This document shows, in pieces, positions 9,001 to 37,258 of a stretch of DNA of 37,388 nt. This DNA is from an uncultured Gammaproteobacteria bacterium (GTDB lineage Bacteria > Patescibacteriota > Patescibacteriia > UBA9934 > CAZDDW01). Positions within the stretch are counted from its first letter, which is position 1. The number at the start of each line of letters is the position of its first letter. The notes beneath the pieces were generated by a model that was given only the letters and a program-made list of their open reading frames with translations, was not told where the DNA came from and ran no database searches. The position numbers were made by a program, and so were the translations under genes. Location of the stretch: assembly GCA_964480695.1 (NCBI GenBank), contig CAYZPO010000002.1:1-37388 (forward strand), in the 5' to 3' direction.

Positions 9001-12000
9001 GGTTCGATTGCTGTGGCTTCCTGTGCCACCTCAACTACTGATCTCAGACTTACCGTGTCCAACGCTCCGGCCAGTGACACTAATTTGACGTTAACCTGGG
9101 CTTACGACAAAGAAGGCAATGTTGATGATTCACTCGATGACGCTGCTGGCAACGCGGTAGCTGACATCTCAGCCCAGACTTTGGCTGATGCAGCTGCTCC
9201 AGTATCAATCGCATATTCTTACAAAGACACGAACACTGATGGACAGATTGACCGTTTTGATATCACGTTCACAGAAAATATCGCTTACGACGAATGTGAT
9301 GCTGCGGACTATACCGTTGGTGGAGCTGACGCTGGAAGTATTGCCGTTAGCTCTTGTGCAGCCTCAACAACTGATCTTCAACTAACAGTCACTGGTGCTA
9401 CGGCCGATGATACTAATTTAACTTTAACTTTGGCTTACACTGCAGCCAATGGTACGGCAGACTCGCTCGATGACGCTGCTGGCAATGCTGTGGTTGATAT
9501 CTCTGCTCAAAGTTTAGATGATGATGCAGCACCGTTCATGACCGCTGCGGTTACAGCTGACAATGATAGTGACGGACAGATCGATCGGGTTGTTGTAACC
9601 TTGTCCGAGGATTTGGATGAGAATAGTGTAGCCGGTGCTGACTTTACTGTGGGTAGCTTTACGGTTAGCTCAGCTTCAGAAACTTCTGCTGGCGTGGTTA
9701 CGATTGTTCTAACTGAATCCGGAGGTGCAGACACGGACGCAACTCCAACCGTAACCATTGCTGGTACGATTACTGATGCTGCTAATGATATTGATGCGAC
9801 CTCAGGAACTGAAGCCTCGACTGATGGGGCCGCACCTGTGTCGAGCACCTATGCTTACAAAGATACTGATGCTGACGGAACCGTGGATCGAGTAGATGTA
9901 ACTTTCTCAGAAAACATTGCTCAGGACGAGTGTGAAGCCGGGGACTACGCTTTTGGTGGTGGAGATGCCGGAAGTATCGCTGTAAGTTCTTGTACTGTGT
10001 CTGGGGATGATCTTCAACTCACTATCTCTGATGCTACAGCCTCGGATACCAATCTCACCCTGACTTGGGCCTATGACAAAGAGGGAACCACAGATGATTC
10101 GTTAGATGACGCAGCCGGTAACGCTGTAGCTGACATCTCGGCTCAGACTTTGGATGATGCAGCTGCTCCTTTAATCTCGGCTCAACAGTATGAGGATTCT
10201 GATAATAACGGAACTGTGGACCGAGTTACTCTGACGTTAACTGAGGCGGCTAGCACTCAGACCGCAGTGATCGGAGATTTCACTTATGTTGCTCAGGATA
10301 TTACTGGCTCAGCTCTGGCTTCAGGAACTTTGTCCTATCCAACCACCTCGACTGTGCGCCTTGTCCTGGGGACTGCAGGTAACTCTGGAATTACTAGCCA
10401 CACCACTGCACCGACAATTGCTTACACAGATGGTGGGGCCACGGCAGTAGCTGATGCAGCTGGTAATCAATTGGCTACCTTTGGAACTACTAACTTGACT
10501 GACGGTGCTGCTCCGGTGATCACTGACTTTACGTACCAAGATAATGATGGCGATGGAAAGATCGACCGTATCGTGGCCACATTCTCGGAAACAGTAACGG
10601 CAGACTCGGTCCTTCGCGCTGCTGATCTGACTTTAACTAACGTTGGAGATTTTACTAGCGCAGCTTTTGGATCTAACACCACTGATCTGATTACTGGTTC
10701 TGTGAGTTCAGTCACTGTCACACTTGGAACCGAGGCAACTGTGGTCGATACTAATGAAGGCTCAAGCAACATTGCCATTTCATCACAAAACAATTTTTCA
10801 CTGACTGAAGGAACTAACACGAATAACACTCTTGGTGCTCAGTCACAAGCCAGCTTTACTGATGCAGCTGCTCCAGTGTCTACGGCTTACGCTTACAAAG
10901 ATACGGACTCAGATGGAACCGTGGATCGAGTTGATGTTACTTTCTCAGAAAATATTGCTCAGGATGAATGTGAGGCAGGAGATTATGCTTTTGCTGGGGG
11001 TGATGCTGGCACGATTGCTGTTAGTACTTGTAATGCTGCAGGCGATGACCTTCAACTGACGATCTCTAACGCTACAGCTTCAGATACTAATCTCACTTTG
11101 ACCTGGGCTTACGATGCTAGTGCTGGAACCGCGAGCTCTCTCGACGACGCTACTGGTAATGCTGTGGCTGACATCTCAGCTCAGACACTCACAGACGCGG
11201 CAGCTCCAGTGTCTACGGCTTACGCTTATAAAGATACAGACGCTGATGGTCAAGTGGATCGTGTAGACGTGACCTTTACTGAGAATATCGCTTATGACGA
11301 GTGCGAGGCTGGAGACTACGCGTTTGCCGGGGATGACGCTGGTACGATTGCCGTCAGTTCTTGTGCTGTGTCTGGCGACGATCTTCGTCTCACGATTTCT
11401 AACGCTACTGCAGATGACACCAATCTCACCCTGACCTGGGCCTACGACAAAGAGGGAACCACAGATGATTCATTAGACGACGCAGCTGGTAACGCTGTAG
11501 CTGATATTTCGGCTCAGACCCTAACTGATAGTGCGGCACCGTTCATGACCGCTGCGGTTACAGCTGATAATGATGGTAACGGACAGATCGATCGAGTTGT
11601 TGTGACCTTGTCTGAAGATCTTACTGAAGGGACTGTAGCTGGGGCAGATTTCACTGTTGGTAGTTTCACAGTCAGTTCGGCTTCAGAAACTTCTGCTGGC
11701 GTGGTTACGATTGTTCTGACCGAGTCGGGAACAGCGGACACTGATGCAACCCCGACGGTCACGCTAGCTGGAAGCATCGATGATACTGGATCAAACTCAG
11801 CCACTTCTGGAACCGAGGCTCCAACAGATGGAGCGGCTCCGGTATCCAGCGCTTACAGTTATAAAGATACTAACTCAGACGGAACTGTGGATCGAGTTGA
11901 TGTGACCTTTTCAGAAAATATTGCTCAGGATGAATGTGAAGCAGCAGATTACGCTTTTGCTGGAGATGATGCTGGGTCAATTGCTGTAAGCTCTTGTGCT

Positions 12001-14193
12001 GTGTCTGGAGACGATCTTCAGTTGACTATATCTAATGCCACGGCTTCTGATACGAGTCTGACTTTAACCTGGGCTTATGACAAAGAAGGCGATGTTGATG
12101 ATTCACTTGATGACGCTGCGGGTAACGCAGTAGCTGACATTTCGGCCCAAACCCTGGTCGACGCCGCTGCTCCGGTGAAGGTTTCTCAGAGTTATAAAGA
12201 CACTGATGTTGATGGAGTGGTGGACCGAGTTGATATTACTTTCACAGAAAACATTGCTTACGATGAATGTGAAGCCGGAGACTTTACTTTTGCTGGAGAC
12301 GATGCTGGAAGTATTGCTGTAGCCTCTTGCGCCGCCTCAACTACAGACTTGCAACTCACTATCTCTGACGCTACTGCTGACGACACTAACCTAACCCTAA
12401 CCCTGGCTTACGCTGCAGCTAACGGCACGGCTAGTTCACTTGATGACGCGGCCGGAAATGCGGTGGCTGACATAACTGCTGCTTCGATTACTGATGCAGC
12501 TGCTCCATTCATGACCGCTGCGGCAACTGGAGACAACGATAGTGATGGTCAGATTGATCGGGTTGTTGTAACCTTGTCTGAGGATTTGGATGAAAGTACT
12601 GTGGCTGGAGCAGACTTTACAGTCGCTGGGTTTGTAGTCAGTTCGGCTTCAGAAACTTCTGCTGGCGTGGTCACGATTGTCTTAACTGAGTCTGGAAGTG
12701 CAGACACTGACGCAACTCCAACTGTAACTTTAGCTGGAAGCATCGATGATACCGGATCAAACTCAGCCACTTCTGGAACCGAGGCTCCAACAGATGGAGC
12801 GGCTCCGGTATCCAGCGCATACAGTTACAAAGATACAGACTCAGACGGAACTGTGGACCGAGTTGATGTTACTTTCTCTGAGAATATCGCTCAGGACGAG
12901 TGTGAAGCCGGAGATTATACTTTTGGAGGTGCAGACGCTGGCACGATTGCTGTCAGTTCCTGTGCGGTATCCGGAGACGATCTCAGGCTCACGATCTCTA
13001 ACGCCACCGCTAACGATACCAGTCTAACTCTAACTTGGGCTTACGACAAAGAGGGAACCACAGATGATTCGCTCGACGATGCTGCTGGCAATGCCGTGGC
13101 TGATATCTCAGCTCAAACCGTGACTGATAGTGCTGGACCTTTGATTACCAGCACTACTCCAGAATCTGGTGAAGACAATTACCAACGAACCGAGGATATC
13201 GTGATTAATTTTACAGAAGCGATTGACACTAGTTCGTTTACCGTGTCTTTCTCACCAGACCCTGATGGTGTTTCTACTTCTTGGAGCAACTCAAACGCTA
13301 CGGCAACTATCGCTCATAACATCTTCCAATCAACGACTAATTATACGATCACAGTGACCGCAGCTCCAGATACTTCAGCTAATAGTTTTGTCGGAGCTAT
13401 AAGTGGGGTGACTCATCCGATCCTTTTGACCTCAGCCGCTGCTGGGGGAGTAAAACCTCCTGTTGTTGTTTATGTTCCTTATGTTCCAGTAGATAATTCA
13501 GACGACGACGATGAGACTACAGGGCCTGATACTGATACAGATACGGAAACTACAGATTCAACTGAGGAAGAAACAGAAACCGAGGAAACTGAGGAGACCG
13601 TGACTGGTACCATGGATTATGAACTTGATCAAGATTCAAATAAATGGAATTCAGATCAAACTGGTTATCGACCAAATACAATTAATGAAGCCCCATCTCC
13701 AGTGACTGGTGAAGAAGAGGATGTGAATGAGGTTTGGTCAGGAATGTTTATTTCTAGTCCTTCGTTCTCAACTGTGTACTACATTGATGATAATTTGCTT
13801 CGTCGACCGTTCTTTAATGCTCAAATCTTCTTTACCTGGGCCAGTTCTTGGGATGTGGTGATTGAAGTTACAGATGCTACACTCTCGACGTTAATTATGG
13901 GCGCACCGATTCTGCCACAACCTGGCGTGGTCTTGGTTAAGATTCAATCTTTGCCACAAGTCTACGCTCTTGAATATAATCCTAGTGAACCACTTAAACC
14001 GATTCTACGTTGGATTACGGATGAGGAAACTGCCATTGTTCTTTACGGAGTCAATTGGGCTGACTACGTGATTGACATTGATCCAACTTTGTTTGCCCGA
14101 TTTGAAACTAGCGGAGAAATTATTGATGAAGCGAGTGACTATTCGATTGATCAAGATATAACTAGAACAAGATTAGAATTAGCCTCATATTAA
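1..14193 (+). CDS. Giant secreted/surface repeat protein; 5' end lies outside the window (more than 4,730 aa)
   Basis: Frame 1 is open from nt 1 (SSGDISIAQGTDYSSGDD precedes the TTG at 55 used by the ORF track). Stop TAA at 14191-14193. Contains duplicated Gly-rich modules, 33 tandem ~105-120 aa modules each opening with a DxDxDGxxD-type loop, a terminal SbsA/Big_5-like Ig module (GPLITSTTPESGEDN...FTVSFSPDPDG), an acidic D/E/T linker and a ~190 aa C-terminal domain. Confidence 0.9.
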   Translation, partial: SSGDISIAQGTDYSSGDDLTLGGSGTCTLTMTNAATLTSLTILANATVSHAAEASAGVDITTTGDLTINADASINTNGLGCAAARGPDADNVCSDAGTGSSGGAGYNASGGAGHGGAGGAGTGSAGGAAYDSATNPVRFGAGSGGTAWGAGEPGGGLIKLAVSGNMSHSGTITADGDDGANRGNPPGGGAGGSINVAVTGTMAGSGTYSAKGGDGDADGGKESGGGGGGIIVISHAGGTVSYSSSDFDVTGGTRPNDTVHGTSGSVYVKDTSASAVSIFGGFTYDGSDFDTGLTSWIMDSGATAQTCSSGTSPVFDDVTNLTIGGTLDCSGADAFTFGATNVTFLDNASVSVGGNTTVTASTDLTMGTGVSITISGVGSDLDFTIADSDDQVWTDMTVTGPAEGIFTMDDEIDLELAGTTALDTSVQFTALTGFTIGASASINADEKGCRAPAAGAHGWGPNGSNVCSESGSGHSDGGGYVGTGGGGHGGNGGDGWGGGMTGGTGGYDTTAAPVLFGASAGGSISYAGQSGGGVVHLDVTGNMTWNGAISAEGDDAQARNSNRAPGGGAGGSVYITVNGTVSGTTGSLSVAGGDGEDGNGSIEGGGGGGGLTAVEYEIDSTSFLSGLTSAGVAPGGDGGPNGETDTADDGVNGTLTLTALLAFSSAQYLDTNSDGQVDRVDVTFTKNITLDECDVADYTFGGADAGTIAVASCATSGADLQLTISNAPASDTNLTLTWAYTAANGTANSIHDGAGTNLGDVSAQTLDDAAAPVSTAYAYKDTGGDGQVDRFDVTFTENIAQDECEAGDFTIGGADAGTIAVASCATSTTDLQLTVSNAPAGDTNLTLTLAYTAANGTADSLDDADGNAVGNITAQSLTDAAAPVSTAYAYKDTDADGQVDRFDITFSEDIAYDECDAADYTVGGADAGTIAVASCGNSGADLQLTVSNAPAGDTNLTLTLAYTAANGTADSLDDTAGNAVSDISAQSLTDAAAPVITTFTYQDNDGDGKVDAVTAGFSETVTAASVLRAADLTLTNVGDFTSAAYGSATDDLITGSVSSVKVNLGTEASVVDTFEDSGNIAISSQNNFSLTDGTTTNNTLGAQTQASFADGVAPVSTAYSYKDVNGDGQVDRFDITFSENIAQDECEAGDYTVGGADAGTIAVASCATSTTDLRLTVSNAPASDTNLTLTWAYTADNGTADSLDDAAGNGVTDITAQSLTDAAAPVSTAYSYLDTDADGQVDRFDVTFTENIAYDECDSADYTVGGADAGSIAVASCAASTTDLRLTVSNAPAGDTNLTLTLAYTAANGTADSVDDAAGNAVSDISAQSLTDAAAPVITTFTYQDADADGKVDQIQATFSETVTAASVLRPNDLNLTDVGDFTSAAFGSDTTDAISGSVTTATLTLGTEASVIDTVDGSGTLAISTQNGFSLTDGTTTNTTLGAQTQVSFADGAAPIITDFTYQDNDSDGKIDRVVATFSETVTAASVLRPNDLNLTNVGDFTSAAFGADTTDAISGSVSSATITLGTEASVVDTNEGSSNIAISTQNGFSLTDGTNTNTTLGAQSGATFTDGASPVSTAYSYLDTGGDGQIDRFDLTFSENIAYDECDAADYTVGGADAGSIAVASCAASTTDLQLTVSNAPASDTNLTLTLAYTAANGTADSLDDAAGNAVANISAQSLTDAAAPVLSAQTYEDSDNNGTVDRVTLTLTEAASTQTAVIGDFTYVAQDITDSVLASGTLSYPDTSTVRLVLGTAGDSGITSHTTAPTIAYTDGGATAIADAAGNQLATFGTTNLSDGAAPVITDFTYQDNDGDGKTDRVVATFSETVTAASVLRPNDLNLTNVGDFTSAAFGSDTTDAISGSVSTATLTLGTEASVVDTAEDSGNIAISSQNGFSLTDGTNTNTTLGAQTQASFTDGAAPLSTAYSYLDTDTDGQVDRFDVTFSENIAYDECDTADYTVGGADAGSIAVASCASSTTDLRLTVSNAPAEDTNLTLTLAYTAANGTANSLDDAAGNAVADISAQSLTDAAAPQLISQTYDDSDANGTVDRVTLTLSEAASTQTAVIGDFTYVAQDITGSALASGTLSYPTTSTIRLVLGTAGNSGITGHTTAPTIAYTDGGATAVADAAGNQLATFGTTNLTDGAAPVITDFTYQDNDGDGKIDRMVTTFSETVTAASVLRPNDLNLTNVGDFTSAAFGSDTTDAISGSVTTATLTLGTEASVVDTNEGSSNIAISSQNGFSLTDGNNTNTTLGAQTQASFTDGASPISTAYAYKDTNGDGQVNRVDVTFSENIAQDECEAGDYAFGGGDAGSIAVSSCATSTTDLQLTISDAPANDTNLTLTWAYDKEGTTDDSLDDAAGNAVADISAQSLTDAAAPIVTAQEYQDSDANGTVDRVVLTLSEAASTQTAVIGDFTYAAQDITGSALASGTLSYPTTSTVRLVLGTAGNSGITGHTTAPTIAYTDGGATAVADAAGNQLATFGATNLSDAATPVITDFTYQDNDGDGKIDRVVTTFSETVTAASVLRPNDLNLTNVGDFTSAAFGSDTTDAISGSVTTATLTLGTEASVVDTAEDSGNIAISSQNGFSLTDGTNTNTTLGAQTQASFTDGAAPISTAYAYKDLLGDGQIETVEVTFSENIAYDECEAGDYAFGGGDAGSIAVSGCATSGTALRYTISNAPASDTNLALTWAYDTDAGTSGSVDDAAGNAVADISAQSLTDAAAPMSTAYSYKDTDADGQVDRFDITFTENIGQDECEAGDFTIGGADAGTIAVASCATSTTDLQLTVSNATADDTNLTLTWAYDQSAGTADSLDDAAGNAVVDVSAQPISDGAAPQITDFTYQDNDGDGKIDQVVATFSETVTAASVLRPADLNLTNVGDFTSAAFGSDTTDAISGSVTTATLTLGTEASVVDTNEGSSNIAISSQNNFSLTDGNNTNNTLGAQTVASFTDGAAPVSTAYSYLDINGNGQVDRFDITFSENIAQDECEAGDFAVGGADAGSIAVASCATSTTDLRLTVSNAPASDTNLTLTWAYDKEGNVDDSLDDAAGNAVADISAQTLADAAAPVSIAYSYKDTNTDGQIDRFDITFTENIAYDECDAADYTVGGADAGSIAVSSCAASTTDLQLTVTGATADDTNLTLTLAYTAANGTADSLDDAAGNAVVDISAQSLDDDAAPFMTAAVTADNDSDGQIDRVVVTLSEDLDENSVAGADFTVGSFTVSSASETSAGVVTIVLTESGGADTDATPTVTIAGTITDAANDIDATSGTEASTDGAAPVSSTYAYKDTDADGTVDRVDVTFSENIAQDECEAGDYAFGGGDAGSIAVSSCTVSGDDLQLTISDATASDTNLTLTWAYDKEGTTDDSLDDAAGNAVADISAQTLDDAAAPLISAQQYEDSDNNGTVDRVTLTLTEAASTQTAVIGDFTYVAQDITGSALASGTLSYPTTSTVRLVLGTAGNSGITSHTTAPTIAYTDGGATAVADAAGNQLATFGTTNLTDGAAPVITDFTYQDNDGDGKIDRIVATFSETVTADSVLRAADLTLTNVGDFTSAAFGSNTTDLITGSVSSVTVTLGTEATVVDTNEGSSNIAISSQNNFSLTEGTNTNNTLGAQSQASFTDAAAPVSTAYAYKDTDSDGTVDRVDVTFSENIAQDECEAGDYAFAGGDAGTIAVSTCNAAGDDLQLTISNATASDTNLTLTWAYDASAGTASSLDDATGNAVADISAQTLTDAAAPVSTAYAYKDTDADGQVDRVDVTFTENIAYDECEAGDYAFAGDDAGTIAVSSCAVSGDDLRLTISNATADDTNLTLTWAYDKEGTTDDSLDDAAGNAVADISAQTLTDSAAPFMTAAVTADNDGNGQIDRVVVTLSEDLTEGTVAGADFTVGSFTVSSASETSAGVVTIVLTESGTADTDATPTVTLAGSIDDTGSNSATSGTEAPTDGAAPVSSAYSYKDTNSDGTVDRVDVTFSENIAQDECEAADYAFAGDDAGSIAVSSCAVSGDDLQLTISNATASDTSLTLTWAYDKEGDVDDSLDDAAGNAVADISAQTLVDAAAPVKVSQSYKDTDVDGVVDRVDITFTENIAYDECEAGDFTFAGDDAGSIAVASCAASTTDLQLTISDATADDTNLTLTLAYAAANGTASSLDDAAGNAVADITAASITDAAAPFMTAAATGDNDSDGQIDRVVVTLSEDLDESTVAGADFTVAGFVVSSASETSAGVVTIVLTESGSADTDATPTVTLAGSIDDTGSNSATSGTEAPTDGAAPVSSAYSYKDTDSDGTVDRVDVTFSENIAQDECEAGDYTFGGADAGTIAVSSCAVSGDDLRLTISNATANDTSLTLTWAYDKEGTTDDSLDDAAGNAVADISAQTVTDSAGPLITSTTPESGEDNYQRTEDIVINFTEAIDTSSFTVSFSPDPDGVSTSWSNSNATATIAHNIFQSTTNYTITVTAAPDTSANSFVGAISGVTHPILLTSAAAGGVKPPVVVYVPYVPVDNSDDDDETTGPDTDTDTETTDSTEEETETEETEETVTGTMDYELDQDSNKWNSDQTGYRPNTINEAPSPVTGEEEDVNEVWSGMFISSPSFSTVYYIDDNLLRRPFFNAQIFFTWASSWDVVIEVTDATLSTLIMGAPILPQPGVVLVKIQSLPQVYALEYNPSEPLKPILRWITDEETAIVLYGVNWADYVIDIDPTLFARFETSGEIIDEASDYSIDQDITRTRLELASY
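203..1845 (+). repeat. Duplicated Gly-rich module inside the giant CDS (copy 1 ~203-705, copy 2 ~1324-1845)
   Basis: Copy 1: INADASINTNGLGCAAARGPDADNVCSDAG...GGGAGGSINVAVTGTMAGSG...GGGGGGIIVISH. Copy 2: INADEKGCRAPAAGAHGWGPNGSNVCSESG...GGGAGGSVYITVNGTVSGTTG...GGGGGGGLTAVEY. Motifs occur in the same order, and each copy has one Cys pair. Confidence 0.75.
1990..13140 (+). repeat. In-frame tandem array of 33 Ig-like modules: 18 type A, 8 type B, 4 type C, 3 type D
   Basis: Read from the translation. Type A: APVSTAY.YKDT..DGQVDR.DVTF.ENIA.DECE..D......DAG.IAV.SC...(~105 aa, two Cys). Type B: APVITDFTYQDNDGDGKIDRVV.TFSETVTAASVLRPNDLNLTNVGDF...(~121 aa). Type C: AP...AQ.YEDSD.NGTVDRVTLTL.EAASTQTAVIGDFTYVAQDITGS...(~117 aa). 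Type D: APFMTAAVTADNDSDGQIDRVVVTLSEDL...(~104 aa). Order: AAAB AABB ACB ACB ACB AAB AAD ACB AAD AAD A. Confidence 0.9.
4723..7836 (+). repeat. Higher-order tandem repeat: three consecutive A-C-B units of exactly 1,038 bp each
   Basis: The unit starts I located in the DNA are 4723, 5761, 6799 and 7837, spaced by 1,038 nt each time. Long identical nucleotide runs are shared between units, for example acgtcggagacttcactagcgc and cttggaaccgaggcttccgtggtcgacactgctgaagactcagg near 5531/7611 and 5618/7691. Confidence 0.85.
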
Positions 14194-17123: not shown

Positions 17124-18467
17124 ATGCCAAAGATCAAACACAAAAACCATGAAGCTAAAGCATGGAACGTGACTGTGAACATGGGTTACGGGCACATGCG
17201 CGCCTCATATCCGCTGTTGGACATGTCCAATGGTGACGGATATTTGATTGCTAATGATTATCCAGGGATTCCTAAAGAAGATCGTCGCATCTGGAAGAAT
17301 TCGCGGAAAGCGTATGAGGCTTTGTCACGAATGAAACAGATTCCTGTGATCGGAGATGAGATTTTCGAACTTTTAGATCGTTGGCAAGAGATCCCATCAT
17401 TTTATCCTAAGCGTGATCTTTCAGCTTCGAACATTCAGGTTCGACAGACTTACAAACTTTTCAAAAAAGGATTTTGTAAGCATCTGGTCCGAATGTTGGA
17501 GGAAGAAAATTTGCCCATGGTTAACACCTTTTTTATCCCGGCCTTAGCTGCTGATTTTTTTGGTTATAAGAATGACATTTATGCCATCATCACAGACACG
17601 GATTTTTCTCGCAGCTGGGTTGCTCTAGAACCAAAGAAATCCAAGGTTAAGTATTTTGCTCCGTCTCGACGCGCTTACGAGCGTTTGAAATTGTACGGAG
17701 TTCCTGAGCGCAATATTTACATGACCGGATTTCCGCTACCACAAGAAAACGTGGGTCTAGAATATGAAAATATTAAACCAGCCCTAGGAGCGCGTTTAAT
17801 CAATCTCGACACTGAAGGTAATTATATGCGTCACCATGAAGAATCAGTTTGTGATCTGCTTGGTGGCTGTTTGCTAAAAAAATCAACGCATCCGTTTACG
17901 ATTATGTTTGCTGTGGGTGGAGCTGGAGCGCAACGTGAAATGGTTGGACAAATGTTAGGAGCGTTAAAAGTTCGTCTTCGACGCGGGCAAATGAAATTGA
18001 TCTTGGTTGCTGGGTCGCGCAAGGACGTGCTAACCCATTTTGAAAAAACGATCAAGCGTAACGGTTTGGATCGTCAAGTAGGGAAGTCGATTGAAATAAT
18101 TTACGCTGAAGACCGCAATGATTATTTCCGAGATTTCAATGTTGCTTTGAAGAAAACCGACGTGCTTTGGACTAAACCAAGTGAACTGTCCTTCTACGCT
18201 GGTCTAGGTGTGCCGATCATTATGGCTCCGCCGATCGGGTCGCAGGAAGAGTTTAATCAGAACTGGTTGCGTAACGTGGGGGCCGGTATTCCACAGCGTG
18301 ATCCGCGTTATTGTGATCAGTGGCTGGACGATTTGCTGCGTAGTGGATGGTTGGCTCGTGCAGCAGTTAATGGATTTACTAACGCGCCTAAACGCGGTGC
18401 CTACCGCATTAAAGAAATCGTGGCTCATCGTAAGCAGGTTATGCCTGAACCGGTTGAACCGGTCTAG
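17124..18467 (+). CDS. GT-B glycosyltransferase of the UgtP/MGDG-synthase (GT28) family; putative glycolipid synthase
   Basis: N-terminal GYGHMRA motif (cf. G-x-GH of UgtP). YMTGFPLPQEN matches ITGIPIRPQF, and TDVLWTKPSELSFYAGLGVPIIMAPPIGSQEEFNQNWL matches the UgtP C-terminal TKPGG...GVP...PGQE.eN block as I remember it. Confidence 0.7.
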   Translation: MPKIKHKNHEAKAWNVTVNMGYGHMRASYPLLDMSNGDGYLIANDYPGIPKEDRRIWKNSRKAYEALSRMKQIPVIGDEIFELLDRWQEIPSFYPKRDLSASNIQVRQTYKLFKKGFCKHLVRMLEEENLPMVNTFFIPALAADFFGYKNDIYAIITDTDFSRSWVALEPKKSKVKYFAPSRRAYERLKLYGVPERNIYMTGFPLPQENVGLEYENIKPALGARLINLDTEGNYMRHHEESVCDLLGGCLLKKSTHPFTIMFAVGGAGAQREMVGQMLGALKVRLRRGQMKLILVAGSRKDVLTHFEKTIKRNGLDRQVGKSIEIIYAEDRNDYFRDFNVALKKTDVLWTKPSELSFYAGLGVPIIMAPPIGSQEEFNQNWLRNVGAGIPQRDPRYCDQWLDDLLRSGWLARAAVNGFTNAPKRGAYRIKEIVAHRKQVMPEPVEPV

Positions 18468-18485
18468 CCTTGCTTGACAGAAGGA

Positions 18486-18514
18486 GTGACAGCCTTTAGG
18501 CTGTTACCTAGATA
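18486..18514 (+). promoter_or_regulatory. Possible sigma70-type promoter (GTGACA-17-TAGATA) ahead of the riboflavin genes
   Basis: Hexamers read at 18486-18491 and 18509-18514. A second TTGACA sits at 18474-18479. A palindrome ACAAGCTaaAGCTTGT lies in the short leader. Confidence 0.3.
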
Positions 18515-18539
18515 ACAAGCTAAAGCTTGTCATTCCGAT

Positions 18540-18887
18540 ATGATAGTTAAAGGTACAGTAATTAAGGGAGCCGGTAGGAGCCGGCTCTTTGGATATCCTA
18601 CAGCTAATGTGGGATATAAACAGGAGCCAGATTTGGCATCCGGAGTTTATGTTGGACAAGCGACTGTGGACGATCAGACCTATCCATGCGTGATCTGTTT
18701 TACAGACACCAAACTGTTTGAGGTCCACTTGTTCGGCCATGATCAGGATTTGTATGACCAAGAGCTTCAGGTCGAAGTTGGACAAAAGGTGAGTGATTTG
18801 AAAAAGTGTGATAGTCTTGAGGAGCTGAAAGAAAAGATCGAGCAGGACATTGCTCAAGCCAAAAAAATCCTATGTTTACCGGAATAA
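18540..18887 (+). CDS. Monofunctional riboflavin kinase (RFK domain only)
   Basis: GTVIKGAGRSRLFGYPTANV...SGVYVGQATVD...FEVHLFGHDQDLYDQELQVEV matches the C-terminal kinase domain of RibF. No FAD-synthetase domain is present upstream. Confidence 0.8.
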   Translation: MIVKGTVIKGAGRSRLFGYPTANVGYKQEPDLASGVYVGQATVDDQTYPCVICFTDTKLFEVHLFGHDQDLYDQELQVEVGQKVSDLKKCDSLEELKEKIEQDIAQAKKILCLPE

Positions 18888-20888: not shown

Positions 20889-20897
20889 ACGCTTTCT

Positions 20898-20926
20898 ATC
20901 CTACGTTAAAGCCAAATGATTGACAA
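20898..20926 (-). promoter_or_regulatory. Predicted rimK promoter (TTGTCA-17-TAGGAT); the -10 ends 9 nt before the ATG
   Basis: Read on the minus strand. The -35 overlaps the -35 of the divergent plus-strand promoter. There is no SD before the rimK ATG. Confidence 0.4.
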
Positions 20927-20948
20927 GTAGCCTGGAGCGTGGTTAAAT
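20920..20948 (+). promoter_or_regulatory. Predicted promoter TTGACA-17-(TGg)TTAAAT for the small-peptide/lipoprotein operon
   Basis: Perfect -35 at 20920-20925, a 17-nt spacer, and an extended -10 (TG at 20940-20941, TTAAAT at 20943-20948). Confidence 0.5.
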
Positions 20949-20979
20949 TTTCTCGAATCTGTTCAAAGGGGATGATTCG

Positions 20980-21096
20980 ATGAAAAAAAGAGGACCTTTC
21001 TTCTGTATCCTGGTCTCCGTGGCGATCGTGCTTGCTGTGACTGGTCTGATCCTGAGCATCTTCGGTCCCATGGCTGCCCTGTCCATCGTCAAGTAG
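20980..21096 (+). CDS. Small (38 aa) single-pass membrane peptide
   Basis: ATG at 20980 preceded by aaGGGGAtgattcg. Translation is MKKRGPFFCILVSVAIVLAVTGLILSIFGPMAALSIVK. The stop is 11 nt before the lipoprotein ATG. It is below the ORF-track size cut-off. Confidence 0.45.
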   Translation: MKKRGPFFCILVSVAIVLAVTGLILSIFGPMAALSIVK

Positions 21097-21107
21097 GAGG
21101 AAAGAAC

Positions 21108-21710
21108 ATGAAGAACGCTATCGGGATGATCGCCGGGGGCCTGCTCGGTCTGGCCTTCCTGGCCTCGTCGTGTGCTGGTGGTGACCAGATCGCAGACGAG
21201 GAGACGTCGGTCAATCCGGAGTCGATCAAGGGTGATCAACTCATCATCGAGACCAATGAAGGTGAGAAGATCGAGGTCGACCGGATCATGCAGGTGGTTT
21301 TCCCCATGAACTTTCTGGACCCAGGACAGAACAAGCTTCTGGTTTTCCAGGATCTGGGAATCGAGCATCCGGATCCAGAGAAGCAGATCGTGCCGTGTCC
21401 CGAAACCGAGGGTCGGGTGGAAGTCCAGTTTCTGGAGCCGAGTCAATCGTCTCCGGTCCAGTTCTATCACCTCCCAGGTCAGCGACCCGGTCTGGTGGTC
21501 AGCTACAAATACTGGTCCATTGACAACACCTTCTATCTTCCGGAAGGTTCGTACCTCGAGGACCTTACGGTCGATGAGACCCAGGTCAAGATCGTCTACC
21601 AGTACCAGGCAACTGAAGAGACTGATGAGGTCGCCAAACCCTTCGATGGCCTTGCACCACCGTTCTACGAGACCGAAGACAGTGCTGGCAAGCAGGTCGT
21701 CGTGGACTGA
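21108..21710 (+). CDS. Putative secreted lipoprotein of unknown function
   Basis: Strong SD AGGAGG 7-8 nt upstream. Signal peptide MKNAIGMIAGGLLGLAFLASSC has a lipobox-like LASSC. A terminator hairpin follows downstream. Confidence 0.65.
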   Translation: MKNAIGMIAGGLLGLAFLASSCAGGDQIADEETSVNPESIKGDQLIIETNEGEKIEVDRIMQVVFPMNFLDPGQNKLLVFQDLGIEHPDPEKQIVPCPETEGRVEVQFLEPSQSSPVQFYHLPGQRPGLVVSYKYWSIDNTFYLPEGSYLEDLTVDETQVKIVYQYQATEETDEVAKPFDGLAPPFYETEDSAGKQVVVD

Positions 21711-21752
21711 GTTCCTTCCTTCGGGCAAGTCCGCCCAACTCCCTCAAACGCA

Positions 21753-21791
21753 ACGCCCTAGTGGTCCGACCCACCAGGGCGTTTGTAGTTT
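21753..21791 (+). terminator. Rho-independent terminator after the lipoprotein gene
   Basis: ACGCCCTAGTGG-tccgac-CCACCAGGGCGT (11 of 12 positions paired) followed by TTGTAGTTT. Confidence 0.6.
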
Positions 21792-21909
21792 AAGAGGGGA
21801 GGAGAAGGGCTAGATGAGCTAGAAGAGAAAGAAGGGAAGAGGGGATTTCAGAGATGATAACAATGGATAACCGGCCGGTGAGCTACTGTCGAAACTTACG
21901 CTCGGGTGT

Positions 21910-21952
21910 ACACAAAGAACATCCGGTCGGCTATTCTTTGTGTGCGTGTTTT
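21910..21952 (+). terminator. Second plus-strand terminator-like hairpin
   Basis: Perfect 10-bp stem ACACAAAGAA/TTCTTTGTGT with a 14-nt loop, then GCGTGTTTT. It lies back to back with the minus-strand terminator at 21961-21994. Confidence 0.4.
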
Positions 21953-21960
21953 GGTCTAAT

Positions 21961-21994
21961 AAAAAAGTGAACGACGCTGTCGAAGACAGCGTCG
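21961..21994 (-). terminator. Minus-strand rho-independent terminator
   Basis: On the minus strand: CGACGCUGUC-uuc-GACAGCGUCG (perfect 10-bp stem) followed by UUCACUUUUUUAUU. Confidence 0.6.
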
Positions 21995-22508
21995 GAGTTG
22001 AAGGGGTAGGGCCGGCCCCTGTAGTGCATCAGAAGGGGCTTCCCCCCCGACCGCTTTGATCCCAAAGGATCTTGCTTTCGCTTCAGCGGCCGGCCCATAA
22101 GTTAATTTAACTATAGCACACCTTGTTTAAGTTGTTAATTTCAATACCCGGACACGTGAAGTCCGGGCATTCGACGCGAGTAGGTTAGATTAGACCTTGC
22201 TCTGCAAGCGGTTTCCGTTAGGATTAACCAAGTAGCTCTGATATGGGCTAATGCGATGAGTCTATTCGCTCACCGATCATTGCTACTAACCGCTCTTATA
22301 CCACTTCAGTTCCGATTTTGGGTTAGGACCCTCACGGCGTTACCACCCACTGAAGAAGGGCTCCGGCTACACAGATCGTTGTCCAGGAGTTTGGCGACAA
22401 CTTAAATCTGCGTAGGTGACGGACACTCATGTGCTTCCTTCAAGTATTTTGGTCACACATGGGGTCTACTTGCGGAAAAACGCAAGCGCTCTGGGTAACA
22501 TGACTTGG
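21961..22508 (-). ncRNA. Candidate ~550-nt structured non-coding RNA of unassigned class
   Basis: No ORF of 60 aa or more in any frame across 21813-22700. Bounded by a minus-strand promoter (22515-22543) and terminator (21961-21994). Many nested helices are readable, for example CUUCAGU/ACUGAAG (22355-22349 / 22310-22304) enclosing a GGUG-GUAA-CGCC GNRA hairpin, AGCGGUU/AACCGCU, and the long-range GGGCCGGCC/GGCCGGCCC helix (22096-22088 / 22017-22009). Confidence 0.45.
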
Positions 22509-22514
22509 CAGCAT

Positions 22515-22543
22515 AAGATAACACAGATTTAAGGATCTGTCAA
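22515..22543 (-). promoter_or_regulatory. Predicted minus-strand promoter TTGACA-17-TATCTT driving the candidate RNA
   Basis: -35 at 22543-22538 and -10 at 22520-22515, with an exact 17-nt spacer. Confidence 0.5.
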
Positions 22544-22562
22544 CCCAATAGCTATTGGGTTG
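22541..22562. promoter_or_regulatory. 22-bp perfect palindrome (CAACCCAATAG|CTATTGGGTTG); candidate operator between divergent promoters
   Basis: Perfect dyad symmetry. It overlaps the -35 of the minus-strand promoter and ends 16 nt upstream of the plus-strand -35. Confidence 0.5.
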
Positions 22563-22578
22563 ATCCCATCAGACAGGA

Positions 22579-22607
22579 TTGACATAGGCGGGGTTTTGTG
22601 GTAGTCT
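22579..22607 (+). promoter_or_regulatory. Predicted promoter TTGACA-17-(TGg)TAGTCT for the 69-aa gene
   Basis: Perfect -35 at 22579-22584, a 17-nt spacer, and TG at 22599-22600 preceding TAGTCT at 22602-22607. Confidence 0.45.
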
Positions 22608-22700
22608 GGTTCCTCGCCGTGGAATTCGTACTCTAGGCAGTCAAGCCAAAGGAAGGAGTTCGGATAATCTGGACTCACAACACCCGACTCGGGAGTTAAC

Positions 22701-22910
22701 ATGAGTACGAACGGTGATAGCGATAGTCCTTCCGCAACTACTTCAACCTTGGGTCACGTTTCCACGTGGGATACTCCTTGGACTGAAGAACATTGGAGAG
22801 CCCTTGAGGAAGACATCGAGTCTATGCGTGAGCGTCTCGAAGAGGCGGATCGTATTTTCTTCGGTGATTGTCTCGAGGATGCTTTCGGGATCAAACCCGA
22901 AGAGTCCTGA
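22701..22910 (+). CDS. Small acidic protein (69 aa) of unknown function
   Basis: ATG preceded by GGGAG 6 nt upstream. Predicted helical acidic C-terminal half (EEHWRALEEDIESMRERLEEADRIFF). A terminator-like hairpin follows. Confidence 0.5.
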   Translation: MSTNGDSDSPSATTSTLGHVSTWDTPWTEEHWRALEEDIESMRERLEEADRIFFGDCLEDAFGIKPEES

Positions 22911-22921
22911 CCCATTTTCCA

Positions 22922-22963
22922 AACCGCGCCCGGCGAGCCTGCCTGGCGCGGTTGCCCCTTTTT
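22922..22963 (+). terminator. Terminator-like hairpin after the 69-aa gene
   Basis: AACCGCGCC-N14-GGCGCGGTT followed by GCCCCTTTTT. Confidence 0.5.
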
Positions 22964-22992
22964 ATAAGACACACTAAAGTGTGTCATTCCCA

Positions 22993-23021
22993 TTTACAAA
23001 TCAGGTCAAATAAGGTATCTT
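22993..23021 (+). promoter_or_regulatory. Predicted promoter TTTACA-17-TATCTT; the -10 ends 11 nt before the ATG
   Basis: Hexamers at 22993-22998 and 23016-23021. There is no SD before the ATG at 23033. Confidence 0.4.
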
Positions 23022-23032
23022 AGTTTGTACTT

Positions 23033-23515
23033 ATGGCAAAGAAAAATGCATCAAGTTATCTTTTTCTCCTAGCAGTGGTTGTTGTAGTTATCCTGTCTGG
23101 CTACGCTATTTTTACGCGCGAGAATACAGCTACTCCTGATCCAGTCGATAATGTTGTTGTAACCACTGCGAGCGAGATTGATGCGGATAAATTGGCTCAG
23201 GCCCTGACTGATCAAGGGGTTAAGTTTTACTACGCTTGGTGGTGTCCGCACTGCGAAGATCAAATCGCTCTATTTGGTAACGCTTTTGAAACTTTGGATT
23301 CCACAGATTGTGCTGAAGGAGTTGGCTCAGGTCAATTTAATCAATTCTGCACTGACCTTGGGGTTACTACCGTACCAGCCTGGGTTTGGCCTGATGGAAC
23401 TGTTTTGACCGGTGCTCGACCGTTTGAAAATTTGGCCGAGCAAGCAGGGTTAGTTCTGACTGAGATTCAGATCGAAACTGATGGTCCAACAGTTGAAGTG
23501 ATTGAAACTGAATAA
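23033..23515 (+). CDS. Membrane-anchored thioredoxin-like protein, partner of VKOR
   Basis: N-terminal TM helix. KFYYAWWCPHCEDQIALFG...TTVPAWVWPDGT closely parallels the Trx-like domain fused to cyanobacterial VKOR (YGAYWCPHCQDQKELFG...YPTWII). Confidence 0.85.
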   Translation: MAKKNASSYLFLLAVVVVVILSGYAIFTRENTATPDPVDNVVVTTASEIDADKLAQALTDQGVKFYYAWWCPHCEDQIALFGNAFETLDSTDCAEGVGSGQFNQFCTDLGVTTVPAWVWPDGTVLTGARPFENLAEQAGLVLTEIQIETDGPTVEVIETE

Positions 23516-27848: not shown

Positions 27849-27877
27849 AACGGAGCTTATGGTACCATAAGAGGCGT

Positions 27878-33478: not shown

Positions 33479-33513
33479 CGCCGCACCCGAGGAGCCAGGT
33501 GCGGCGTTGTTGT
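33479..33513. terminator. Hairpin shared by the convergent murJ and HD genes
   Basis: CGCCGCACC-N10-GGTGCGGCG followed by TTGTTGT on the plus strand, and by an A/T-rich stretch on the minus strand. Confidence 0.5.
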
Positions 33514-33523
33514 TGACGAAAGA

Positions 33524-34303
33524 TCAGTCCTGTTCCTGGGCCACTGTCTCGCCAGGCTGCTCGATCCATTGACCTTCATGTTGGTCCAGTAGGGCTTGGA
33601 ACCAGGCTCGAACATCCTCGGTCCAGACCTCATCCCCGAAGCCAGGAAGATCTCGCGCCAGACGATCCAGGTGTTGTACCTGGTGGCGCAGAGTCTGAAT
33701 CAGGATCACTTTGTTGCCTCGCTCTTGGAATTGCTCCAGAGCGTAGATGACATAGTCCCAGCGCTCTACCGCTTCGAAGAACAAGGCCTCGGTGCGATGT
33801 TGTTCTGCTAGTTCTTTGAGGGCCGAACGTGTCTCTCTTGGGAAGTGTCCCCACTCCTTCAGGCAGAACTGGAGCAGGAAGGCACGCTGGAACAGAACGA
33901 ACTCGTCGTCAGGGAGCTGAGAGAAGCGCCTGGCGAACACTTCGTACTCTCGAAGGTCCAGCGCAGCATCCTTATCGATGTAGAGTACATCCAGTTCTGT
34001 CTCACCCTCACCGTGGTCATGCACGTGAACTGCCGTGAAGATCAGTTCAGTATCCAAACTCGTGTAGCGACGAAGGCGCTTGGACAGGACGATAGCCAGG
34101 AAAGTGATCGCGTGTGTGTGCTGGAGAGAGTTCTGTGGCCGAGCACCACGCCCACTCTTGATGAATTTCTTCCATCGAGTCGCCTCAGGAAGTCCGGTTT
34201 GTCCAGCACGCCAGACGTCTAGCGTGTCGAGCCAGAGTTGGCTGGGAAAACCCATGCTGTATCCCTTCAGTTCAGGATTGTATCGACGAATAAGTCTTAC
34301 CAT
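33524..34303 (-). CDS. HD-domain phosphohydrolase, YfbR-like (5'-deoxynucleotidase-type HD_3)
   Basis: QNSLQHTHAITFLAIVL ... FTAVHVHDHGEGETELD ... ERWDYVIYALEQ gives the H...HD..E...D pattern. The start is uncertain: there is no SD at 34303, and an alternative ATG at 34255 is preceded by AAGGGA. Confidence 0.6.
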   Translation of the reverse strand: MVRLIRRYNPELKGYSMGFPSQLWLDTLDVWRAGQTGLPEATRWKKFIKSGRGARPQNSLQHTHAITFLAIVLSKRLRRYTSLDTELIFTAVHVHDHGEGETELDVLYIDKDAALDLREYEVFARRFSQLPDDEFVLFQRAFLLQFCLKEWGHFPRETRSALKELAEQHRTEALFFEAVERWDYVIYALEQFQERGNKVILIQTLRHQVQHLDRLARDLPGFGDEVWTEDVRAWFQALLDQHEGQWIEQPGETVAQEQD

Positions 34304-34311
34304 GTTTTAGA

Positions 34312-34360
34312 ATTTTAAACAAAAAGAAGAACTCGGCCTGTCCGCAAGGGGACGGCCGAG
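34312..34360 (-). terminator. Minus-strand rho-independent terminator between the 149-aa gene and the HD gene
   Basis: On the minus strand: CUCGGCCGUCC-ccuugc-GGACAGGCCGAG (11 bp with one bulge) followed by UUCUUCUUUUUGUUU. Confidence 0.55.
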
Positions 34361-34392
34361 CCGTGGAGAGAAGTGCCCGTGCGGTGCTTGTT

Positions 34393-34842
34393 TTAGTCTC
34401 GAACGAGATAGATCACCCGTTCGGGTGGAATCGATTTTCCAGCTCGAAGGATGATGTAAGAAAGTTCTTTGTGCCCGCGTTCGTTAGGAGCTTCGTAGAA
34501 AGCAGCAACCAGCACTTGCCGGCGCAGTTTATACATCCTGTGTGAATATCTGGCCAGACCCGGTCTGGGCTTTCGTGGAAATCGTTGTCGAGCCCTTTTC
34601 ACCACCTCATCGTATAAAGGACGGAAACGCATGGAACACGGTCCAGCATTGATTCCGGCTCCTTCGAACAAGATCGGCCTACCGTACCCTCGCTGTTCCG
34701 CGTCTTCCAGGACCTCCAAGATGAGCTTGTCCAACTCGCTAGTCTTGATGCGAATCAGCGCCCGAAAGGTCAGCCCCAGGACCAAACTAGTCAGGTAGAT
34801 CGCAGCTATGGTGGCAGGTCCTAGGACTATTTCAGTCAACAC
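34393..34842 (-). CDS. Hypothetical membrane-anchored basic protein (149 aa)
   Basis: GTG start 5 nt after the upstream stop. N-terminal TM segment (GPATIAAIYLTSLVLGLTF) and an Arg/Lys-rich body. I recognise no family. Confidence 0.45.
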   Translation of the reverse strand: MLTEIVLGPATIAAIYLTSLVLGLTFRALIRIKTSELDKLILEVLEDAEQRGYGRPILFEGAGINAGPCSMRFRPLYDEVVKRARQRFPRKPRPGLARYSHRMYKLRRQVLVAAFYEAPNERGHKELSYIILRAGKSIPPERVIYLVRD

Positions 34843-34847
34843 AATCT

Positions 34848-35207
34848 TCAGAGGTCATCGGACGGTCGGATTTCGAACGAAGTCGCGACGTATCCGACTG
34901 CGGTGTAGTCATTGCCGGGGCGAACTGTGATCTCTGCTTTTTGCTTGAGTAGGTGAATCTGCACATTGATCCACTGTCCACTAAACGGGAGAGAGCCTTC
35001 TGTAACCTCGACTAAAAGGTACAGATCGCCATTCAGTCCCGTTGTTCTGGTGTCATGGACAGTGCCGCTGATAGTCTCTCGTTCACAAACAACAGTCACG
35101 TACTGGCCGATAGGTTCTCTAGCCATGTTTGTGATTGATCGGGTGAGCTGGGCGAATTTGGCATCGAGCCTCACGGTCTGCATGCTGACAGGCATATTTC
35201 TGCTCAT
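34848..35207 (-). CDS. Hypothetical protein (119 aa), probably beta-rich
   Basis: ATG at 35207 preceded by a strong SD (ccaGGAGGAcaccctt). I recognise no family. Confidence 0.5.
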   Translation of the reverse strand: MSRNMPVSMQTVRLDAKFAQLTRSITNMAREPIGQYVTVVCERETISGTVHDTRTTGLNGDLYLLVEVTEGSLPFSGQWINVQIHLLKQKAEITVRPGNDYTAVGYVATSFEIRPSDDL

Positions 35208-35273: not shown

Positions 35274-35302
35274 TTTACCTTTTGAGCTCGTTTCTTTATA
35301 CT
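35274..35302 (+). promoter_or_regulatory. Predicted alaS promoter TTTACC-17-TATACT; the -10 ends 6 nt before the ATG
   Basis: Hexamers at 35274-35279 and 35297-35302. There is no SD before the ATG at 35309. Confidence 0.35.
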
Positions 35303-35308
35303 ATCTGC

Positions 35309-37158: not shown

Positions 37159-37187
37159 TTGACAGAAATCTGAAATAAGCATAAAAT
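37159..37187 (+). promoter_or_regulatory. Predicted promoter TTGACA-17-TAAAAT upstream of infA
   Basis: Perfect -35 at 37159-37164, a 17-nt spacer, and -10 at 37182-37187. Confidence 0.5.
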
Positions 37188-37258
37188 AGGCGCGCTCTGC
37201 ATTATCCACATAGGGCTTGCCAATTTTTAGCTTATTTGATAGAATTCTGGCACAAATT

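Follow-up and report, generated by a model that had tools for sequence, protein, structure and literature searches.

A candidate gene for a structured RNA of about 550 nucleotides on a lineage-specific islet of a probably Patescibacteria-like bacterium

The stretch analyzed here (contig CAYZPO010000002.1, positions 1 to 37,388; hereafter, the window) encodes in the wider neighborhood of the locus of interest riboflavin kinase, RibE, RibH, RimK, a thioredoxin-like protein (Trx), VKOR, a beta-CASP nuclease, Era, TrmA, MurJ and AlaRS, and the surrounding region is ordinary bacterial chromosome. RimK is separated from the Trx-VKOR-betaCASP operon by a segment to which we refer as the islet, and which holds three protein genes and, on the minus strand, the subject of this work, a candidate gene for a structured RNA of about 550 nucleotides (nt) (Table 1). 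The candidate lies in the sole gap of at least 350 nt in the whole window that is left uncovered by stop-to-stop open reading frames (ORFs) of at least 80 amino acids (aa), at 21811-22667. A first-pass annotation of the locus had reported that no ORF of 60 aa or more is found between 21813 and 22700, and this holds, the largest ORFs there being of 55, 49 and 57 aa. Gene callers put no ORF on 22046-22508, the part of the RNA that is covered by an independent assembly from Logan. Both real neighbors of the candidate are plus-strand genes, because it is the lipoprotein ORF that is called as a gene in the independent assembly; a 261-aa minus-strand ORF antisense to it (20943-21728) is judged spurious.

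As the first-pass annotation had claimed, a minus-strand promoter and, downstream, a perfect 10-base-pair (bp) hairpin followed by a U-tract are present, on the same strand and 550 nt apart. Both are among the window's best of their kind. The promoter is one of three sites in the window that combine a score of at least 10/12 with the TG of an extended -10 element, and transcription from it is predicted to start at about position 22508; promoter-like sites are consensus matches only, seven being seen in the 3.5 kb scanned where 2.7 are expected. Its -10 hexamer, TATCTT, recurs in the promoter-like site directly upstream of the native Trx gene (22993-23021). The terminator ranks first among those listed for its half of the window, and none on either list exceeds its seven G-C pairs. 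We infer that the interval is transcribed between these two signals. Moreover, on one side of the palindrome that overlaps the -35 box lies the RNA promoter and on the other a TTGACA of the plus strand (at about 22583-22588), directed towards the 69-aa ORF; in layout, the region looks like a pair of divergent promoters arranged around a shared, operator-like palindrome, and no candidate DNA-binding protein is encoded near it. At the other end, the lipoprotein operon probably has its convergent terminator in the plus-strand hairpin that adjoins the RNA terminator back to back. The flanking genes, on the strand opposite to that of the RNA, each have promoter or terminator signals of their own. 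A long structured mRNA leader, one of the readings offered by the first-pass annotation, fails, as does a riboswitch, because the next gene on the minus strand is RimK, 1.07 kb on and past a plus-strand operon; the genes on either side are read from the plus strand, and the terminator ends the unit. Riboswitch models gave no match in the Rfam runs described below.

Table 1. Features of the islet and of the RNA candidate, with positions in the window (minus-strand features are read from the higher to the lower number; P, pair probability; MFE, minimum free energy).
Feature	Positions	Strand	Basis or remarks
Lineage-specific islet, 2.1 kb: 38-aa ORF, orphan lipoprotein gene, RNA candidate, 69-aa ORF	20889-23032		Synteny, GC content, Shine-Dalgarno sites
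Orphan lipoprotein gene (200 aa; signal peptide and lipobox LASSC), convergent with the RNA	21108-21710	+	Called in an independent assembly
Hairpin (21910-21943) followed by the T-run GUGUUUUGG, back to back with the RNA terminator	21910-21955	+	
Intrinsic terminator: perfect 10-bp stem CGACGCUGUC/GACAGCGUCG, 3-nt loop UUC, then UUCACUUUUUU	21994-21961	-	
Predicted transcript, 548 nt	22508-21961	-	About 64% of bases paired in the MFE fold
3' domain, a four-way junction with closing stem GGGCCGGCC/GGCCGGCCC and GAAA, UUUG and AAGC hairpins	22096-22009	-	
Internal promoter-like site TTAACA-17-TATAGT with TG, in the AU-rich linker	22138-22110	-	Consensus scan, 10/12
Hairpin D, 11-13 bp, AAUGCCCGGAC/GUCCGGGUAUU, no U-tract after it	22174-22141	-	MFE fold
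Hairpin C, GC-GAG-AGGU/ACCU-CUC-GC	22205-22176	-	MFE fold
Domain B, AGCGGUU/AACCGCU enclosing AGUAGC/GCUACU, UGAU/AUCA and CGGUGAG/CUCAUCG	22294-22207	-	P 0.63-0.97
Alternative three-way junction, CUUCAGU/ACUGAAG closing GGUG-GUAA-CGCC and GGGU-CCUA-ACCC	22355-22304	-	-16.4 kcal/mol alone
32-aa ORF MSVRHLRRFKLSPNSWTTICVAGALLQWVVTP	22430-22332	-	Shine-Dalgarno-like GAAGGAAG 3-5 nt before AUG
Domain A, closed by GACCC/GGGUC, includes 17-bp hairpin 22415-22367	22466-22327	-	MFE fold
5' hairpin GCUUGCG/CGCAAGU	22487-22468	-	P 0.97
Sigma-70-like promoter TTGACA-17-TATCTT, TG extended -10	22543-22515	-	Consensus scan, 10/12 matches
Perfect 24-bp palindrome TCAACCCAATAG/CTATTGGGTTGA overlapping the -35 box	22540-22563		P 0.97 if transcribed
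69-aa acidic ORF with GGGAG Shine-Dalgarno site, divergent from the RNA promoter	22701-22910	+	Called as a gene in a Logan contig

The interval bracketed by these signals is predicted to be exceptionally stable. Folding of its 548 nt gives an MFE of -210.6 kcal/mol, against -163.0 +/- 6.2 kcal/mol for dinucleotide shuffles (z-score -7.65), and none of 100 shuffles folded as well. Fifty tiles of 548 nt, drawn from both strands of the window, have a mean z-score of -0.64 (standard deviation 1.54, minimum -4.6), so that the candidate lies about 4.5 standard deviations beyond the tile distribution of its own window. A similarly long ORF-free gap in a relative (L033) gives a z-score of about -2, and the plus strand of the interval itself folds less well than the minus strand (z -4.25). 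Both halves are structured when folded alone, the 5' 368 nt with a z-score of -4.1 and the 3' 143 nt with one of -5.8. From its 5' end onwards, the RNA would fold into a hairpin, a large 5' domain (domain A), a branched middle domain (domain B), two long hairpins (C and D), an AU-rich linker and a four-way 3' domain, after which comes a C/U-rich single-stranded segment, UACCCCUUCAACUC. Of the helices that had been drawn by eye in the first-pass annotation, CAGAU..GUUGUC, the AGCGGUU/AACCGCU set and GGGCCGGCC/GGCCGGCCC are all in the MFE structure, with mean pair probabilities of 0.92-1.00 except for CGGUGAG/CUCAUCG (0.63). The three-way junction closed by CUUCAGU/ACUGAAG, however, is absent from the MFE structure and appears only in an alternative fold, 6.2 kcal/mol worse, in which it is built by the 3' half of domain A; the same alternative fold yields the long-range helices UUGAAGG/CCUUCAA and AGCACAU/GUGUGCU.

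Several short motifs recur in the sequence. The hexamer CCCUUC is found three times in the 548 nt (22360, 22037 and 22005, minus strand) where about 0.15 occurrences are expected, and one of the copies falls in the exposed stretch before the terminator. UCCUAAC-NNN-AAA is found twice (22328-22317 and 22223-22212, minus strand). The self-complementary octamers GGCCGGCC (two copies) and CCGGCCGG lie within 230 nt of one another (22088-22095, 22010-22017 and 21871-21878) in a genome of about 46% GC, and the two copies of GGCCGGCC form both arms of the stem of the 3' domain. No tandem repeat was detected in the RNA, the sole match being a 9-nt purine repeat outside it, at 21803-21827, and a repeat or guide array of the CRISPR, TIGR or ToxI type is rejected, since the RNA is without tandemly repeated units.

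The first-pass annotation had also raised the possibility of a decayed gene, which finds no support. The seven longest six-frame fragments of 21940-22700 gave no Pfam hit at E <= 1 other than a single weak match (E 0.17, far below the cut-off), and blastn against phage and plasmid collections gave no DNA match. Relatives carry dus, the gene for tRNA-dihydrouridine synthase, at this site (see below); tblastn with the Dus proteins of two relatives found nothing in 20889-23032, and both a dus pseudogene and an inverted segment are rejected on tblastn grounds.

The transcript could nevertheless be a structured mRNA for the 32-aa ORF in its 5' part, perhaps with a long structured 3' untranslated region. 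In one version of this idea the locus would resemble a type I toxin, with intramolecular pairing hiding the ribosome-binding site until processing or refolding of the RNA. The purine run 3-5 nt before the AUG is in keeping with the Shine-Dalgarno sites that the other islet genes use, and in the MFE fold it pairs with UCUUC (P 0.64); the N-terminus of the peptide is basic and its C-terminal half moderately hydrophobic, and the locus is a lineage-restricted orphan on an islet. Lineage-restricted orphan status and an islet location are typical of hok/sok-type loci, and like hok/sok-like mRNAs the candidate would be a folded transcript of several hundred nucleotides with its own promoter and terminator and a short ORF whose Shine-Dalgarno site is sequestered. 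In contrast to them, the peptide is weakly hydrophobic, its best 19-aa window having a mean Kyte-Doolittle value of 0.9, below the usual transmembrane thresholds; a scan of 21961-22508 revealed no promoter-like site on the plus strand that could give an antisense RNA; and more than 300 nt of structured RNA lie downstream of the ORF, which accounts for only 99 of the 548 nt. Moreover, we estimate at about one in ten the chance of such a purine run before one of several short ORFs, and the exact word GAAGGAAGCACATGAGTG is also found at an unrelated phage gene start. An mRNA for the 32-aa protein seems to us quite unlikely.

The 3' part of the transcript raises another alternative, that of nested transcripts: a long RNA from the upstream promoter and a 143-nt small RNA (sRNA) from the internal promoter-like site, starting at about 22103 and sharing the terminator. 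Function would then reside mainly in the short RNA, as with the sRNAs derived from mRNA 3' ends that have their own promoter (MicL, DapZ). The internal site scores as high as the upstream promoter and sits in a linker that is AU-rich and unstructured. The 143-nt module has, in addition to its z-score of -5.8, an MFE structure that makes up 26% of the ensemble, and its layout is that of a classic sRNA, with a structured body, a C/U-rich single-stranded stretch and a terminator. On the other hand, the internal promoter is one of the seven consensus matches seen in the scanned 3.5 kb; the 5' 368 nt, which have no terminator of their own, are also significantly structured; and the duplex energy of the 143-nt module against the 5' part is no better than that of shuffled controls. 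As in MicL or DapZ, the internal site would give a short RNA with a common terminator and a C/U-rich stretch; here, however, the longer transcript is no ordinary protein-coding mRNA, and no target pairing stands out. We regard nested transcripts with the short RNA as the main product as unlikely.

The view of the first-pass annotation that the RNA is of unknown class, and is not RNase P RNA, tmRNA, signal recognition particle (SRP) RNA or a group II intron, is borne out by covariance models and by ARAGORN. The cmscan search proposed there gave no family match: none of the 4227 models of Rfam 15 reached its gathering score anywhere in the window, and at E <= 10 only microRNA-type noise appeared on 1101 nt and nothing on 251 nt. 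Among the families without a covariance-model match are SRP RNA, 6S RNA, OLE, ROOL, GOLLD, raiA and HEARO (IscB omega RNA), and no IscB/TnpB-type or OLE-associated protein is encoded by the neighboring genes. Group I and II introns gave no Rfam core match, and no reverse transcriptase or homing endonuclease domain was found in the neighboring genes or in the six-frame fragments. ARAGORN found no tRNA or tmRNA gene at its default setting or with -ps, and noise only at -ps70 and -ps50; tmRNA is rejected on these grounds, down to very low thresholds, together with the lack of an Rfam match. A literature search found no description of a matching RNA class.

RNase P RNA is the known family that invited the closest comparison. 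The candidate is of the same size class as RF00010 and RF00011, and has three words in common and collinear with E. coli M1 RNA (GGUAACGCC, UAAGAGCG and GAGCAAGG), while its alternative fold offers AGCACAU/GUGUGCU and UUGAAGG/CCUUCAA as possible long-range helices; GAAGGAAGCACAUGAGUG recalls what we take to be the CR-I region of RNase P RNAs. However, no RNase P model (bacterial class A or B, archaeal or nuclear; CL00002) matches at the gathering score or at E <= 10, and the class A model, which gives E. coli rnpB 318.6 bits as a positive control, does not register the candidate. The common words are of 7-9 nt, with blastn E-values of 0.66-10, that is, of chance size, as the first-pass annotation had said. 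When the candidate is threaded by hand on the class A consensus, the GAGC word finds no P5 partner and the threading fails at P5/P7; the helix AGCACAU/GUGUGCU, the candidate for P4, is without the bulged U, the conserved features of P4 are absent, and the P7-like helix closes two hairpins only. RNase P RNA is therefore rejected, for chance-size similarity and the wrong topology. That the candidate is a very divergent member of this or any other known large family (tmRNA, SRP RNA, OLE, ROOL, GOLLD or a group I or II intron) is highly improbable, none of them having appeared at E <= 10 on the 1101 or the 251 nt and ARAGORN having been silent until noise-level thresholds.

The first-pass annotation described the signals at the locus correctly but missed their context, a lineage-specific islet in the place of dus. 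A scan of GTDB with RimK returned relatives of at most 43% identity, two of which have VKOR-Trx, then a position that we call X, then RimK, together with the beta-CASP gene; one of these two syntenic relatives is labeled Patescibacteria. A JGI metagenome scan with the beta-CASP protein returned 80 loci (best identities 56-60%) and added about a dozen syntenic contigs, one of them from a 0.2-um groundwater filtrate. The synteny set comprises L001, L002, L012-L022 and L035, and these relatives are probably Patescibacteria. In the relatives examined, position X is occupied by dus, co-directional with RimK, and none of them has an ORF-free gap there. At the same spot, L015 and L022 additionally carry an unrelated lipoprotein gene, and L016 carries a different ORF; the dus/islet spot looks like a variable site. 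The islet has a GC content of 50-57%, against 42-47% in its flanks, and all three of its protein genes are preceded by clear Shine-Dalgarno sites; among the 26 gene starts examined, most native ones lack such a site. Differing GC content and Shine-Dalgarno usage, and the lack of a dus remnant by tblastn, mark the segment as foreign, and it was probably acquired horizontally, replacing dus. Outside the islet, Shine-Dalgarno sites are also seen at the 119-aa ORF p119 (34848-35207) and at the NDT gene. The promoter-like site at 22993-23021 ends about 12 nt before the Trx ATG at 23033 which, as native genes mostly lack Shine-Dalgarno sites, suggests leaderless or Shine-Dalgarno-independent initiation. 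As ends of a mobile element, a 12-nt inverted repeat (21713-21724/22646-22657) was considered and rejected as of chance size.

The islet proteins gave nothing meaningful in PHROGs or PADLOC, and word-index searches with the lipoprotein and with the Trx-like neighbor returned only the queries themselves; orphan status drawn from the latter is weak, because the tool missed Trx homologues of 43-44% identity (L001 and L002, with the word AWWCPHC in common) in GTDB metagenome-assembled genomes. The nhmmer search that the first-pass annotation had proposed was run over 0.99 Mb of fetched loci and gave nothing at E <= 100; two single-sequence covariance models, of domain B and of the 3' domain, gave nothing over 0.92 Mb of related loci. 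In IMG/VR, six scans for exact words and one with a protein returned one random match, at a phage gene start. In any event, the sequence is real and recurrent, because exact-protein look-up recovered two Logan contigs from different sequencing runs that are 100% identical to the window; being identical, they offer no strain variation.

These results bear on a further alternative, namely that the interval is imported or rearranged DNA without function, its hairpins being leftover terminators or palindromic elements and any transcript incidental. The composition is unlike that of the host, relatives have no counterpart at the site, no homologue was found, and the GC-rich palindromes (GGCCGGCC twice, and CCGGCCGG) look less like typical RNA helices than like restriction-site or REP-like sequence. 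Yet 0.85 kb of inert DNA would be unusual, because the intergenic spacers elsewhere in the window are short; a top-ranking promoter and a top-ranking terminator precisely bracket a region of extreme predicted stability; no repeat copies exist elsewhere in the window; and the sequence is the same in two independent samples. Inert DNA is, in our view, a rather improbable account of the interval.

We propose instead that the interval is a stand-alone, imported gene for a highly structured RNA that acts as RNA and whose function is unassigned, a proposal that is plausible though unproven and to which we give a probability of roughly 0.45. By consensus and thermodynamic evidence only, the candidate displays the generic features of a non-coding RNA gene, that is, a promoter and a terminator of its own, no coding capacity and a stable structure. 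The extended -10 promoter of the sigma-70 type, with the operator-like palindrome over its -35 box, would drive minus-strand transcription, and the transcript, of about 545 nt, would end at the intrinsic terminator. The RNA so produced, if the predicted fold is real, would present the very well-defined 3' four-way-junction domain just before the single-stranded C/U-rich segment and may be a non-coding, trans-acting structural or regulatory RNA that belongs to the islet rather than to the core genome of the host. Possibly, the CCCCUUC segment before the terminator base-pairs, in the manner of an sRNA, with the purine-rich (GAAGG/AAGGGG) ribosome-binding regions of islet genes, a role for the 3' module that we suggest with low confidence; the large 5' part would then serve as a scaffold.

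Several observations weigh against this proposal. Syntenic relatives do not have the RNA at the RimK/Trx-VKOR-betaCASP site, and it is therefore dispensable for the lineage. No homologue was found, in a limited search whose collection-wide scans were not aimed sensitively at the RNA sequence itself, and without homologues neither covariation nor purifying selection can be shown. False positives are a known weakness of thermodynamic z-scores taken alone. The numbers of G-U pairs are alike on the two strands (15 versus 13), favoring neither clearly, so that the strand assignment leans mainly on the promoter and the terminator. Finally, the 32-aa ORF with its Shine-Dalgarno-like sequence and the internal promoter-like site suit other readings, which leaves the single functional non-coding RNA of 550 nt envisaged in the first-pass annotation plausible but unproven.

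No known family includes the candidate; the closest in kind are ROOL, GOLLD and OLE, large ornate bacterial RNAs of about 580-800 nt of unassigned function (PMC12286853), though the resemblance stops at size, complexity and, for ROOL and GOLLD, a place in the accessory genome. The candidate is similar to them in its size and in having multi-domain predicted pairing, GNRA-type loops and a stand-alone unit and, as with ROOL and GOLLD, it is found outside the core genome, on DNA that is variable or imported (PMC12286853 for the families). Unlike them, it is a singleton without a covariance-model match and not a family backed by covariation, its surroundings contain neither prophage genes nor tRNAs, and its host is probably Patescibacteria-like rather than a member of the Bacillota. 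Self-association, as in ROOL, GOLLD and OLE, is possible in principle, because GGCCGGCC, the octamer that makes up the stem arms of the 3' domain, is self-complementary. It is conceivable, if doubtful, that the candidate is the first member of a new class of multi-domain RNAs of about 0.55 kb, carried by small mobile islets of Patescibacteria-like bacteria and expressed from an operator-controlled promoter; such a class would have escaped notice because the lineage has barely been sampled.

Other parts of the window also drew attention. The second most negative z-score of the window (-4.6) belongs to the plus-strand tile at 18300-18847, which takes in the end of the gene for a DUF6938 protein, the riboflavin kinase gene and the 72-nt spacer between them; neither an FMN riboswitch nor any other Rfam family was found there. 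The 29-nt divergent spacer between the genes for a TrmA-like methyltransferase and a GT2 glycosyltransferase (27849-27877) is almost wholly taken up by a perfect palindrome of 16 bp, CTTATGGTACCATAAG. A segment of higher GC content (52-56%) at 33500-35207 holds three minus-strand ORFs of 259, 149 and 119 aa, the first two without a Pfam match, and is possibly another imported islet. A giant ORF of 4712 aa (55-14193) has one Big_5 domain and a weak SICA_C match and otherwise almost no recognizable domains; after it come three ORFs of about 450-500 aa each, of which one matches DUF6938 and the other two have no Pfam match. An alternative genetic code is rejected, TGA ending 8 of 27 genes and being absent in frame from the 4712-aa ORF. 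The AlaRS ORF (35282-37120) is of 612 aa with a TTG start; bacterial AlaRS is usually of about 870 aa. Directly after it, near the end of the window, lie the two strongest plus-strand promoter-like sites of that part (37159-37245).

Since the sequence is short and has promoter and terminator signals of the E. coli type, it can be synthesized, expressed and probed directly. Should the RNA not be real, the locus would serve as a warning that a strong promoter, a strong terminator and a strong z-score do not suffice to call an RNA gene on DNA that has only recently been imported. If it is real, a large structured RNA without relatives would be added to the very short list of bacterial RNAs of more than 500 nt that have no known function; its source would be an ultra-small lineage, probably episymbiotic, whose non-coding RNA is almost uncharted. 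It would mean, moreover, that such RNAs can travel on tiny islets, alongside genes for surface proteins.

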